64,000 nt of DNA from Escherichia coli (GTDB lineage: Bacteria; Pseudomonadota; Gammaproteobacteria; Enterobacterales; Enterobacteriaceae). Made by a program: the position numbers. The stretch lies in assembly GCF_030013595.1 (NCBI RefSeq), contig NZ_CP122769.1, one strand, 5' to 3'. Shown here piece by piece: positions 56,901 to 62,900 of this stretch (positions within the stretch are counted from its first letter, which is position 1; each line of letters opens with the position of its first letter).

Positions 56901-59900
56901 TCCGTTCTGCACTCGGCATGCTGATGAGCCTGTCTTCAAATATTGAGAGCCTTACCGGTACCACTACCCGCTTGGTAGAATCTGTTAATGCCACCAGCTA
57001 CCCCTCTGTGAGGTAACATGGATGCTTTCAATCTGCTGTGGAGCATTACGGGGGTAGCTTTCATTATCCTTATTTTCGTCGTGTTGCTGTGTCTGTTGGG
57101 TTTTATGACCTCTGCCATAGCGGAACGGCGGACTGCAAAGGCAATTGAATCTGGGCTTCCTGAAGAAGCTCAGGGGCTACTTAGTGATCTCACCTTTCAG
57201 TTGTCGGCTCATAGCACTACTCAGGTTGATCACATTCTCGTAGCCCCACATGGTATATACGTCATAGAGCAGAAAAACTACGTAGGCAAGCTCTACGGTA
57301 CTCTGGAGGAAAGCCACTGGCGGAAATGGACTCAGTCCCGAACCCTCAAGTTGCAGAACCCGTTTAAGCAAAACCAGGGGCACATCAGGGCTATTCAGTC
57401 TGCTCTTAAGGCTAGAGAACTGGAATGTATCAATGTCGTCATCATAAACGGACGTTGTAAGTTTGATGGCATCAAGCCGGAATGGTTATGTATGGGGATG
57501 GACGATTTTATCCATAAAGTCAAACAACGACGAGGGCTACGGTTGTTCACACCGGAGTCTGTTCAGCACATCTGTTCGGTGTTGAAGTCAACAAGGAAGT
57601 CGCCAGGGCTCTATACGGACCTTACTCATATTCACAACATAACGACAAAGTACAAAGCCCCGATGAAATTCGAGCAACGAGTAACATACATTCTGCTCAA
57701 CTTTATCCATTATCTGTGGGCAAGTCTGTTCACTAAGCAGAAGCCTTAGCGCTCTATCATTGGTAAGGCTGTAAAATGTCTGCAAAAGGCCCCATCGGTA
57801 AATTGTTGGGGCTTTTTCTTTGCGTAGTTCTGATACGGTTTATCCTGTGGAGCATTATGGCCACCAGCCAGCTGGTGACTGGCCAACGCTTTGTATGACG
57901 TAGCCTACTCAGGGCAGGCTATTTTAGAGGGACCGATTTTTATCCGGGCTAATTTAGAAAGAGATAATTTGAACTTAGGCGGGCTGACCACCAGCAGAGA
58001 GGTAAATCACTAGCCGGTGATATTGACAGAAGTCGTCAGGGGTTTAACGCCGGAATATTTTGCCAGGCCTCCTGCAAGGTCTGCAAGACTTCTACAAGTG
58101 ATAGTGACGGCCACAGGACTGTTTCCGTCATTATCACTCCAGGTGGCTCGCACTCTACTGGTACCAGAATTAAAACAACACGAGTTCCTTTTACCTGGTA
58201 GGCAAGGTTTACTGCCGGTTGGCGGTAGGAGGCCAGTACACCCTCACCATATTGAGCAGGGTTACTTGCCCAGTTCCGCACCATTGCATACACCTGAGGC
58301 ATATACCGACTATCCAGATCCCCTTTGGGCCGTCTGAACGGCACGATTTCTTCTGAGCGGTAGGTGGTCGTTGTTGTATTGGTTGTCATCTTTGTCACCT
58401 CCCCTGTTCGTCCATTTAGAGTTTTAAGCTGCTTTACACATCACACTCAACTGATTATTTAAGCTGGTCATCGTCTCTGGCCAGCATAGCCCAACCATTC
58501 GACTGGTTTTCGCGGGAGTAAGGATTCATTTCAAAATAACTATCTACCGCGTCGCTGTCCGCAACAGAACTGTTGTTAGCTCTCTTTGAACCCTGAACCA
58601 CTACAGCATCAACCTCTGCGGCTTTCCCGTTGCGCTGTACCAGGATTTTAACCGTCTTGGGCTTACGTCTTGCGAGCAGTTTGTTGGCGATAAAAAGCAC
58701 AACAATCCAGGCCAAAAGCACGTATAAAAATTTATTCATAATGCCCTCCTTTGTATGTGATTATTATACCTGCTTCCATTGCAGGCCAAACAGGTTCGGT
58801 GTATGAAAAATAGACTTCTCTCCGGCGTATAGCAATCTACTTACTGATCTGTTTTCGTATCAAACTGTATGGCATAACCGAGGGGCGTACGTGGTGAGTC
58901 AGAAAGTTACTTTTCCGTAATAGTTAATTTCAGATCCTTCTTCCAGTTACGCTTCAGTATAAAACCGATACCCTCTAATTCAGCATCCTTCACGTTTAAT
59001 ACGCTTCACTTTAAGGCAGGGCTTTTCGGTTGATATGAATTCTTTTTCCGGTTGCTGGACATGGGTTTCATCCTGATAGTTAAAATTGCAGGCTATCAGT
59101 CACCACCACCACCTCCTCCTCCTCCTCCTCCACCGCCACCATCACAACCACCAGCTATGCTATTTTCACCATTACAATCACCTCCGAGGGGGTTCAAATG
59201 GCTGTAAGCGTAAACTGACCGCCGTATGTAGCCATCAGACGAGAATTGGTAACTTAGACGCCCATCTGATATAGACGGACATCTAAGTATGGAATTACAG
59301 GACTGGCGAAAAGAACCTCGTAAAAACTATTCGAATGAATTCAAACTTCGTATGGTGGAACTGGCATCACAACCTGGAGCTTGTGTTGCACAGATTGCAC
59401 GTGAAAATGGCGTCAATGATAATGTTATTTTCAAATGGCTCAGGCTCTGGCAGAACGAAGGGCGTGTTTCGCGGCGTCTTCCGGTAACGACCTCTTCTGA
59501 CACTGGCGTTGAATTATTACCTGTAGAAATAACGCCGGATGAGCAGAAAGAACCTGTGGCGGCCATTGCGCCGTCTTTATCCACTTCCACTCAGACCAGA
59601 GTCAGTGCCAGTTCCTGCAAGGTGGAATTCCGTCACGGTAACATGACGCTGGAAAATCCATCGCCAGAGCTGCTCACGGTGTTGATCCGTGAACTGACCG
59701 GGAGGGGAAGATGATCTCACTCCCATCAGGTACCCGTATCTGGCTCGTTGCCGGCGTTACCGATATGCGTAAATCCTTCAACGGACTGGGAGAACAGGTA
59801 CAACATGTGCTGAATGATAATCCCTTCTCCGGTCACCTGTTTATCTTCCGTGGCCGACGGGGTGACACCGTCAAAATTCTTTGGGCTGATGCTGATGGTC

Positions 59901-62900
59901 TGTGCCTGTTCACCAAACGCCTGGAGGAAGGCCAGTTTATCTGGCCTGCGGTACGTGACGGCAAGGTATCCATTACCCGCTCGCAACTGGCAATGCTCCT
60001 CGATAAGCTGGACTGGCGTCAGCCAAAAACATCCAGCCGTAACTCACTGACAATGTTGTAAAAAACTCCTGACCGCATTATAAAAACGGTCATGAGTCAG
60101 AAATACCTCATTCGCATCGCAGAGCTGGAAAGGTTGCTCTCTGAGCAGGCTGAAGCCCTCCGTCAGAAAGACCAGCAACTGAGTCTGGTTGAAGAGACGG
60201 AAGCCTTCCTGCGCTCTGCACTGACACGTGCCGAAGAAAAGATCGAAGAAGATGAACGGGAAATAGAACATCTGCGGGCTCAGATAGAAAAACTGCGCCG
60301 GATGCTGTTCGGTACCCGTTCTGAAAAACTGCGTCGTGAAGTTGAACTGGCTGAGGCTCTGCTGAAACAACGTGAACAGGACAGCGATCGTTACAGTGGG
60401 CGGGAAGACGATCCTCAGGTTCCCCGCCAGTTGCGACAGTCGCGCCATCGTCGTCCGTTACCGGCACACCTTCCCCGTGAAATACACCGCCTGGAGCCAG
60501 AAGAAAGCTGTTGCCCGGAGTGTGGCGGTGAGCTGGATTATCTGGGGGAAGTCAGCGCTGAACAGCTGGAACTGGTGAGCAGTGCCCTGAAAGTGATCCG
60601 CACAGAACGGGTAAAAAAAGCCTGTACAAAATGTGACTGTATTGTTGAAGCACCGGCGCCGTCCCGCCCGATAGAGCGTGGTATCGCGGGCCCCGGATTA
60701 CTTGCCCGCGTGTTAACGGGAAAATACTGCGAACATCTGCCACTGTATCGTCAGAGTGAAATCTTTGCCCGCCAGGGTGTCGAACTGAGCCGGGCCTTAC
60801 TCTCCAACTGGGTTGACGCGTGCTGCCAGTTAATGACACCGGTGAATGATGCCCTGTACCGTTATGTAATGAACACCCGCAAGGTTCACACTGATGACAC
60901 ACCGGTAAAGGTACTGGCACCGGGTCAGAAAAAGGCGAAAACAGGGCGTATCTGGACGTATGTCCGGGATGATCGCAATGTGGGTTCGTCATCTCCTCCA
61001 GCGGTCTGGTTCGCGTACTCGCCGAACCGGCAGGGGAAACACCCGGAGCAACACCTCCGCCCCTTCCGGGGTATCCTGCAGGCGGATGCGTTCACAGGTT
61101 ACGACAGGTTGTTCAGTGCAGAACGTGAAGGTGGTGCACTGACAGAAGTTGCGTGCTGGGCCCATGCCCGGCGAAAAATCCACGATGTATACATCAGCAG
61201 CAAAAGTGCGACGGCAGAAGAAGCCCTGAAGCGAATCAGTGAACTGTACGCCATCGAGGATGAAATACGGGGATTACCGGAGTCAGAGCGTCTTGCCGTC
61301 AGGCAGCAGCGAAGCAAAGTGTTACTGACGTCGCTGCATGAATGGATGGTGGAGAAGAATGGTACGCTGTCGAAAAAATCCAGACTGGGCGAAGCGTTCA
61401 GCTATGTACTGAATCAGTGGGATGCCCTCTGTTATTACAGTGATGACGGTCTGGCGGAGGCGGATAATAATGCTGCGGAAAGAGCGCTTCGTGCAGTCTG
61501 TCTCGGAAAGAAAAACTTTATGTTCTTTGGCAGCGATCACGGCGGCGAGCGTGGAGCACTGTTGTACGGGCTGATCGGCACCTGCCGTCTGAACGGTATC
61601 GATCCGGAAGCGTATCTGCGCCATATCCTGAGCGTACTGCCGGAATGGCCTTCCAACCGAGTTGATGAACTCCTGCCATGGAACGTAGTACTCACCAATA
61701 AATAAGCGTCAATACGGTGCTCCGTTGACGCTTACAAATGGCTGCTCCCCTGTAGATGGTGTCCTTGCCAGATCGAACCCGAACCAGCGCCTCCTGAGCG
61801 TCTTTGCTTGCCCTGAGGCAATTGTGCAGGCTCACCAGCACCGGCGGTCCCAAAAATGTCCCGGGCAATTTTATAAAGAAGGTAAAAAGGTACGCCCAGC
61901 ATCATAAAAAAGATTACTGAAAATATTACACGTTCCATTGATGATCTCCTGTCTTGTGAGAGACCAGTTATATCAGGGTGATTCAGTATTTCCGTTTAGA
62001 AAAGAGTACTAATTTGGCCCTGTTCGATCTTAATTTGCCATCCGGGAAAAAGTCATAGGGATAGGCCTGCCAGAGTCAATAACTTCCAGTGATCTGGAGG
62101 AGACCCCGGCTCTCTGAGCCCTCATGGATGGTACGGCTTTACCCCCTGTAAACAGATTCACGTTCCGCAGGACAAACATCGACTACTGACGTCTCATATT
62201 TGCTGACGCTAATCCGACGTCTCATTGCCGTCTGCTTGTTTTCTTTAAAGGGTGTATTAGACGAATATCAAATCGGAATGGTAGGGGATGTGTGGGCACC
62301 ATGCCCGGCCCTCTTTGAGCATCTGAGAGATTGGAGACCTAGCCGGGTAAGATAGCTACTTTCTTACGGGTTACCCTTCAAATCCAAAGACGAAACGGAC
62401 GCTGCCGTTCTCCACGTGGAGACGCTTTACTTCTTCGACAAATTCCTGGATCACCTCTCCGGCGTTATCGGGTGGTATGGCTGACAAAATTTCTTCCGAA
62501 GTCAGCCATGAGTATGAATGTTCACCGAATAAATCATCATCTTCGGACGGTATATCATCAGGTAATCCGCGTAATGCGTGGATAAAAACTGCTGATGTGC
62601 TCGCCCTTTCACGATCTACATCAAATCCGAGCCAGGCAAAGTGGAGATATGATCGGTCCCCTTTATAATTGCTTGATAAATTAATCCATTTACCAGGCTT
62701 TTCTTCCCTTTGAAATCGCCAGCAGATATCAACGCCCATTAAGAAACTCCATTACTATCGTTCGTATGAGATAACTATCATTTCAGAATACTATGACTTC
62801 TTCCCGTATAGAACTAATCGCTCACGCCAACTGGGCGAAGCCAACCGGTTCCGCCACTTCGCTCATTGGTTTTTAGGCGTAAGCACTGAAGCCAGTCTCC

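Follow-up and report, generated by a model that had tools for sequence, protein, structure and literature searches.

We analyzed a stretch of 64,000 nucleotides (nt) of Escherichia coli DNA from contig NZ_CP122769.1, hereafter the window. In it the insertion sequence (IS) ISEc23 splits a small minus-strand gene of the IncHI2 plasmid backbone. The insertion is 2532 bp long, occupies positions 59204-61735 (plus strand) and is a single complete copy. It is 100% identical over the full 2532 bp to many plasmid copies annotated as ISEc23 family, and no other copy of ISEc23 lies inside the 64-kb window. The terminal inverted repeats, GTAAGCGTAAACTGACCGCCGTATG on the left (59204-59228) and GTAAGCGTCAACGGAGCACCGTATT on the right (61711-61735), match at 20 of 25 positions, and both termini begin GTAAGCGT (GTAAGCG type). 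Three plus-strand genes lie between them: tnpA, of 141 amino acids (aa; 59289-59714), the accessory gene tnpB (116 aa, 59711-60061) and the gene for TnpC, the IS66-like ISEc23 transposase (537 aa, 60092-61705). In an identical copy of the element their products are annotated as WP_000422741.1 (transposase), WP_000624722.1 and WP_000080195.1, respectively. The open reading frames (ORFs) of tnpA and tnpB overlap by 4 nt. An 8-bp target duplication, AAATGGCT, flanks the element at 59196-59203 and 61736-61743. Thus the tnpA/tnpB/tnpC order, the 8-bp duplication, the imperfect GTAAGCG repeats and the near-identity to annotated copies all place the element in the IS66 family. A sequence-only reading of this DNA had described a 2532-bp IS66-family element with imperfect inverted repeats of about 25 bp and identical 8-mers on both flanks, and each of these points was confirmed.

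Plasmid pSTM6-275 carries the corresponding empty site, with one AAATGGCT in the place of the left and right copies. The flanks of the window are 100% identical to it and meet precisely there, which indicates a recent, simple transposition that altered nothing else. Such an ISEc23 insertion is ordinary and belongs to the routine IS traffic on a resistance plasmid. The insertion point falls in codons 66-68 of the gene. One ISEc23 copy transposed into these codons of an IncHI2 backbone gene and left the 8-bp duplication as the only change. Positions 54204-64000 of the window (9.8 kb) are 100% identical, IS included, to the Salmonella enterica IncHI2 plasmid NZ_CP117034.1, isolated from pig faeces in Poland, and ISEc23 is probably at the same location in NZ_OY754830.1 too. 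The main use of the ISEc23 junction is as a lineage marker; it is present in the Polish pig plasmid, and the identical 68-aa product that it creates (P0045) has been recorded from 21 contigs.

The interrupted gene and its losses

Joining the two flanks with one copy of the 8-mer restored a minus-strand ORF of 303 nt and 100 codons, with an ATG at 61938 and a stop codon at 59096-59098. An AGGAG motif stands 7 nt upstream of the ATG (ribosome-binding site and upstream region, 61939-61960, minus strand). The restored protein is MERVIFSVIFFMMLGVPFYLLYKIARDIFGTAGAGEPAQLPQGKQRRSGGAGSGSIWQGHHLQGSSHLNPLGGDCNGENSIAGGCD-G13-D, with a tail reading ...DCNGENSIAGGCD-G13-D, and it is 100% identical to WP_000442694.1, a "hypothetical protein" annotated as a coding sequence in pSTM6-275. 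The 100-codon ORF with a strong ribosome-binding site, an N-terminal hydrophobic helix and a G13 tail, as first described, was therefore recovered both by re-checking the sequence and by identity to an annotated protein. A second allele, WP_000442693.1, is R478-like; it encodes 99 aa and its tail is G6-D-G5-D.

The sequence-only reading had proposed a search for the uninterrupted gene in related plasmids. The restored ORF matched 975 plasmid records, and in 946 of these an unbroken stretch covers at least 80% of the gene. Nearly all of the matching records are conjugative plasmids of approximately 200-400 kb from Escherichia, Salmonella, Enterobacter, Klebsiella and Citrobacter, and plasmid typing gave IncHI2 in each record inspected. 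The alternative of a chance ORF, which predicted that no uninterrupted homologue would be found, fails, as hundreds of plasmids carry the identical annotated coding sequence.

We compared the gene with its copy in L007, a divergent IncHI2-like contig (94% identity in the gene). Twelve of the 18 substitutions fell at codon position 3, the ratio of nonsynonymous to synonymous changes per site (pN/pS) was 0.29, and the annotated frame was the sole open one. The five other frames had 1 to 9 stops each. Their pN/pS was 1.8-5.3 in four cases and 0.35 in the antisense frame that shares third positions with the annotated frame. The target is a real protein-coding gene under mild purifying selection. 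An opposite-strand poly-proline ORF (59052-59207, plus strand) and the remaining frames were also considered as candidates and were rejected because of their stops and their non-coding substitution pattern. A consensus scan for promoters and terminators found sites no more numerous than in shuffled sequence. By eye only, a possible extended -10 element, TGATATAAC, can be seen approximately 30 nt upstream of the gene.

In the window the gene is left in two fragments. The 5' fragment (61732-61938, minus strand) is a truncated ORF of 68 aa, which comprises the transmembrane helix and part of the linker. Its stop comes from the right inverted repeat, whose GTAAGCG end on the minus strand supplies a TAA directly after codon 68 (minus strand ...AGC CAT TTG TAA GCG). 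The 3' fragment (59096-59203, minus strand) holds codons 66-100 and the stop codon and is now without a promoter or start codon. With an anchor of 68 aa and no tail, the function of the gene is probably abolished.

The gene is also interrupted elsewhere. In the reference plasmid R478 (NC_005211.1; L019, 1185-2500) Tn10 lies in the gene at codon 47, with IS10R annotated as ISVsa5 and accompanied by tetD and tetC; its target, CGCTCAGGA, resembles a known Tn10 hotspot. A 64-aa Tn10 fusion ORF (P0013) is widespread and was found in 717 blocks of the contig index. Another locus has an IS10-family transposase and a Tn10-like gene set in the gene (L008, 4001-5463). In one protein an IS26 end is fused at codon 79 (P0004), and in others the tract is joined by deletion to downstream DNA (P0026 and P0029; a deletion is present in L020 as well). 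Plasmid pEGY49_MCR-1.1 has an internal deletion in the gene. In total the gene is split or deleted in approximately 3% of complete IncHI2 plasmids. Since the disrupted plasmids are still typed as conjugative, replication and transfer do not require the gene. The gene is dispensable, and the insertion in the window was tolerated for this reason, as the R478 Tn10 and the split or deleted copies indicate.

Many small hydrophobic plasmid proteins are mildly toxic or costly, and repeated inactivation could reflect selection against such a membrane peptide and not neutrality. In line with this, a gene of 303 bp has been disrupted independently at least four or five times (by ISEc23, Tn10/IS10, IS26 and two kinds of deletion), and ISEc36 adjoins the IncHI1B-type copy. 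However, the gene is intact in approximately 97% of complete IncHI2 plasmids and is under mild purifying selection. We found no antisense RNA or antitoxin signature at the locus with Rfam, where a hit to Mu-gpT-DE was far below the gathering score. A type I toxin of the Hok-like kind is a hydrophobic peptide of less than about 60 aa with a cis-antisense RNA; the product does not have this form, and its 100 aa exceed the length of such toxins. We therefore regard a toxic or costly peptide as quite improbable.

The glycine tract

The G13 run is encoded by a compound microsatellite at 59102-59140 (minus strand), which reads GGT GGC GGT (GGA)6 (GGT)4 on the coding strand. The (GGA)6 part, seen as six TCC units at 59114-59131, is as first described. 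According to Tandem Repeats Finder the tract is the only long array of period 3 in the 64-kb window. The earlier description had also suggested that the run could vary in length by slipped-strand mispairing and that its length should be compared between isolates. Such a comparison showed that lengths differ in whole-codon steps. The window and pSTM6-275 have (GGA)6(GGT)4, giving G13; pF1022-1 and OU015335 have (GGA)5(GGT)6, giving G14; pET1.1 has (GGA)4(GGT)6 and encodes G13, the same protein by different DNA. In pEC-IMP the tract is GGA GGA GGT GAC GGA (GGT)4, which gives G6-D-G5-D, and the Logan contig L025 (P0043; one of the 24 contigs read) has (GGA)2(GGT)4 and G9. Further forms in protein records are G3, G11, G8-A-G3 and several variants that differ at a single residue. 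Hence the uninterrupted alleles comprise G3, G9, G11, G13 and G14, and Asp-interrupted forms exist besides.

To survey the frequency of these alleles, 60 of the 975 records were taken at even spacing. Thirty had the length of G13, 25 were R478-like (one codon shorter) and two were one codon longer; two further records were split by Tn10 and one had an internal deletion. In the intact copies the query region measured 317, 320 or 323 nt only, so all differences were multiples of 3. Whole-codon steps change the length of the tail and leave the reading frame and expression as they are; the tract is therefore not an on/off switch. Between them, two alleles make up 55 of the 60 records in the sample, and their dominance over some 975 plasmids points to a low slippage rate. 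Codons are presumably gained and lost by replication slippage. Length variation between isolates, from G3 to G14, thus stood up, although it is modest and comes with no phase switching. Likewise, of the properties of a phase-variable contingency locus, we observed variation in length but no high-frequency on/off switching. In one IncHI2 lineage an Asp-punctuated Gly tail became an uninterrupted (GGA)n(GGT)m run. Frameshifted database entries also exist (P0005, P0006, P0054, P0055 and others), and these are indistinguishable from sequencing errors.

The locus could also act as G-rich nucleic acid, through a G-quadruplex-prone (GGN)13 run or a Shine-Dalgarno-like GGAGG run, with the ORF incidental or present by chance. 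For the 3' end of the mRNA, ViennaRNA gave -65.8 kcal/mol with G-quadruplexes allowed and -17.7 kcal/mol without them, and many short-read contigs end inside the tract, as would suit this explanation. It fits poorly with the protein architecture shared by IncHI1 and IncHI2 (transmembrane helix, basic patch and GGGGD end), with the absence of (GGA)n from the R478-like and IncHI1 alleles, and with changes of tract length that are always whole codons. The codon-position bias and the single open frame favour coding as well. A function in the nucleic acid is very unlikely.

In the mRNA of 59114-59131 the (GGA)6 array forms overlapping AGGAGG motifs of Shine-Dalgarno type; after them, GTG codons stand in register in the +1 frame. 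This frame is read in some database proteins (P0006), which could reflect frameshifting, internal initiation or sequencing error. We also observed that hundreds of public short-read contigs stop inside (GGA)n (loci L021-L024); the sampled ones end ...GGTGGAGGAGGAGG. Partial proteins of 86-94 aa in one listing alone represent more than 650 contigs that end in the tract. The cause may be either a drop in coverage at G-quadruplex-prone sequence or heterogeneity of length within cultures. As the tract is a recurrent breakpoint of short-read assembly, surveys of its length need long-read or closed assemblies.

Predicted product and IncHI1 counterparts

Hydropathy analysis identified a single strong helix, at residues 4-22 in the IncHI2 protein and 6-24 in that of R27. 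The IncHI2 helix, VIFSVIFFMMLGVPFYLLY, is encoded by codons 4-22 (61873-61929, minus strand) and has a mean Kyte-Doolittle value of 2.24. AlphaFold2 predicted a helix at residues 2-30 with a local confidence score (pLDDT) of 80-87; the remainder scored below 50, i.e. it is predicted to be disordered. The segment after the helix is 30-36% Gly and has few hydrophobic residues, conserved Cys and Asp, and a terminal Asp. A Pfam search of the protein returned no match, only a TMEM208 hit on the helix at E=0.15, and searches of NCBIfam, PHROGs, PADLOC and PDB sequences with the protein and its small neighbours were empty.

When 5.8 billion proteins were searched by word index, no homologue outside IncHI2 was found, and HMMER, run in full against 1.84 billion representatives, returned the IncHI2 variants and one low-complexity hit only. 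Counterpart ORFs were found by synteny in IncHI1 and IncHI1B-type plasmids. They have the same position and orientation, upstream of the gene for a 94/104-aa transmembrane protein and downstream of genes for 145 and 178 aa. The counterpart in pHCM1 and R27 has 84 aa (MTHRSFVMLLNIALILYVAVCLYLCLRNKKALYRSQ...GDSGDAGGGCGGGGD) and the IncHI1B-type counterpart has 91 aa, ending ...GGDGGCGGGGDAGGGCGGGGD. A transmembrane helix and an RNKK patch are present in both, and both tails end ...GDAGGGCGGGGD. We found the IncHI1 ORF in 273 plasmid records; in many of them it is without annotation, and in R27 it is annotated from an internal Met as WP_000925846.1. A profile search with the IncHI1 forms returned more IncHI1-type lineages, all ending GDAGGG(G)CGGGGD, and no bridge to IncHI2. 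At the DNA level, a weak match of 32 nt at the end of the tail links the IncHI2 and IncHI1 forms. Between the IncHI1 and IncHI1B forms there are four indels, all multiples of 3, and the ratio of nonsynonymous to synonymous substitution rates (dN/dS) is 0.72. In these forms the reading frame is preserved while the sequence drifts quickly. On the basis of synteny, architecture and the 32-nt match, the IncHI2 and IncHI1 forms are positional counterparts and probably fast-diverged orthologues. Synteny, helix, basic patch and a tail ending in GGGGD were found together in the IncHI2, IncHI1 and IncHI1B-type forms, as expected of a family of IncHI proteins with a transmembrane helix and a Gly tail. 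Klebsiella plasmids of the pNDM-MAR-like MOBH type, reached through the NERD neighbour described below, keep a 118-aa neighbour, and the ORF with the helix and Gly tail is absent from them.

The IncHI1 and IncHI1B-type counterparts were read at L011 (3509-3763), L012 (3491-3766) and L013 (401-655), and many RefSeq records of both types leave them without annotation. Two further observations concern the IncHI1B-type copies. Their records annotate, in place of the counterpart, a 46-aa ORF that overlaps it in another frame. In pMB4528V_1 an ISEc36 element of the IS3 family (L015, 1732-2960) lies immediately upstream of the counterpart or in its start.

The charges around the helix suggest how the protein would be oriented. 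The IncHI1 and IncHI1B forms have four Lys/Arg residues after the helix and one before it. Positively charged residues flanking a membrane helix tend to stay inside (the positive-inside rule), and by this rule a tiny periplasmic N-terminus and a cytoplasmic tail are predicted. The sequence thus favours an N-out/C-in topology. In the opposite arrangement the helix would be a type II signal anchor (N-in/C-out), and a periplasmic tail with a C75-C85 disulfide loop would serve in the envelope, for example in the mating-pair/pilus apparatus or in exclusion. The conservation of C75 and C85 in all IncHI2 variants, the weak charge bias around the IncHI2 helix and a position next to the Tra1 Dtr operon would agree with such a role. 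Set against it are the four Lys/Arg residues after the helix versus one before in the IncHI1 and IncHI1B forms, which place the tail in the cytoplasm, as well as the single Cys in the IncHI1 tail of R27 and the typing of R478 as conjugative with Tn10 in the gene. We consider the inverted topology unlikely.

The sequence-only reading had compared the composition loosely with Gly-rich microcins. The product would then be the precursor of an exported, antibacterial peptide, either a class II microcin or a ribosomally synthesized and post-translationally modified peptide similar to McbA. McbA, the precursor of microcin B17, has a Gly10 run and a core rich in Gly and Cys. What speaks for it is composition only, namely the long Gly run and a Cys set in Gly (GGCDGGGG in IncHI2, GGGCGGGGD in IncHI1). 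However, the N-terminus is a hydrophobic helix of 19-21 residues followed by basic residues, i.e. a membrane anchor and not a leader, and there is no double-glycine (GG/GA) cleavage motif in residues 1-30. Within approximately 8 kb on either side we found no genes for a cyclodehydratase/dehydrogenase (McbBCD/YcaO), a C39-ABC exporter or immunity; the neighbours are small hypothetical genes and the Dtr operon. The protein has no match in Pfam, NCBIfam or PDB. The analogy was not borne out, and a microcin is extremely unlikely.

Our best guess for the product is a small bitopic protein of the inner membrane, with a tail that is disordered and cytoplasmic, and not an exported toxin. Its one N-terminal transmembrane helix, with a basic juxtamembrane patch, would leave a short N-terminus on the outer side and place the C-terminus in the cytoplasm; after it would come a poorly conserved, disordered polar linker and a tail rich in Gly, Asp and Cys that always ends in GGGGD. 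The helix may dock in the membrane or on a membrane partner, as a weaker suggestion. On the cytoplasmic side of the membrane the flexible tail could expose its conserved terminal Cys/Asp/Gly motif, for a partner or for thiol or metal binding, and we conjecture that the Gly run serves as a spacer whose length can be tuned. As a whole, we consider it likely that the locus is a clean ISEc23 insertion in a real IncHI2 gene for a small bitopic membrane protein with a Gly/Asp/Cys tail that is not a microcin.

Several points weigh against this explanation. The role given to the tail is conjecture. Immediately upstream of the gene, no canonical sigma-70 promoter emerged from the consensus scan, and literature searches on the WP accessions, IncHI2, R27 and polyglycine topics returned nothing on the gene. 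For the IncHI2 protein the topology call is weak, as two Lys/Arg and two Asp/Glu residues lie in the flank that follows its helix, and the C75/C85 pair (spacing of 9 residues), which all IncHI2 variants conserve, would also be compatible with a disulfide loop in the periplasm. BLASTP gave no alignment between the IncHI2 and IncHI1 proteins, so their homology lacks statistical support, and with a dN/dS of 0.72 the constraint on the IncHI1 form is weak.

A more specific proposal is that the IncHI2 gene belongs to an unrecognised backbone family of IncHI1 and IncHI2 plasmids. Its products would be membrane-tethered and disordered, and their C-terminal ...G-C-G4-D motif would have a specific role, be it in the chemistry of thiols or metals, as a site of post-translational modification, or in docking to a partner from the host or the transfer machinery. 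This role would be tuned by the Gly spacer whose length the tract sets. We regard this proposal as possible but doubtful. The gene is of interest as a conserved yet dispensable backbone ORF of two major groups of multidrug-resistance plasmids, IncHI1 and IncHI2, with no detectable homologues and an unusual design of transmembrane helix plus polyglycine. It escaped study partly because the reference plasmid R478 has Tn10 inside it and the IncHI1 copy is often unannotated.

Neighbourhood and comparison with known systems

The interrupted gene is one of a series of small hypothetical genes, all on one strand, and the series converges with the end of the Tra1 Dtr operon. This end encodes the MobH relaxase, the coupling protein, a hypothetical protein, DUF4400/TraJ, an S49 peptidase and a NERD nuclease-related protein. 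The NERD protein (57018-57749, plus strand), encoded by the last Dtr gene, weakly resembled the BREX kinase PglW and the MADS protein MAD6 in their NERD regions, with scores far below the curated cut-offs. The downstream neighbour of 94 aa (58455-58739, minus strand) is also a single-pass membrane protein, and its gene has its own TATAAT -10 element and AAGGAGG ribosome-binding site. Owing to these, the insertion would have no polar effect on it. The promoter and 5' end of this gene are the only part here that can be aligned to IncHI1 DNA (82%). In the divergent contig L007 (Logan ERR1822337) the 122-aa upstream neighbour is gone through a clean deletion of approximately 530 bp (9567-9568, compared with 7036-7566 in L001). 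Elsewhere in the window, RNA-OUT (RF00240, 98.8 bits) at 11720-11789 (minus strand) adjoins a transposase-sized ORF of 402 aa (11782-12990, plus strand), which points to an IS10-type element.

The element of the window shares with ISEc23 all 2532 bp, the tnpA-tnpB-tnpC genes, the repeats and the 8-bp duplication, and it is new only in its location. The restored ORF is 100% identical to WP_000442694.1, whereas in the window the gene is split and only the 68-aa stump is possible. With in-frame trinucleotide loci of the contingency type the gene shares a coding microsatellite of varying copy number, and it differs from them in that the frame is kept and nothing is switched. McbA and the Gly-rich class II microcins resemble the IncHI2 product in the Gly run and the Gly-embedded Cys; they differ in having a leader and, nearby, genes of the mcbBCDEFG or C39-ABC kind, neither of which accompanies the IncHI2 gene. 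The ORFs of R27 (WP_000925846.1), pHCM1 and the IncHI1B-type plasmids have the same position, orientation, architecture and GGGGD end. Their tails, in contrast, are built of GDAG(G)GCGGGG units with no (GGA)n microsatellite, and they have no significant similarity to the IncHI2 protein.

Small bitopic inner-membrane proteins are the last known system to be compared. They include N-out/C-in anchors such as ZipA and small membrane proteins such as YohP and AcrZ. The product of the interrupted gene differs from them in being without a globular domain or known partner, and we know of no counterpart of its Gly/Asp/Cys tail among the characterised ones. It would share with them a single N-terminal helix, a basic C-terminal side, the lack of an enzymatic domain and a flexible cytoplasmic extension.

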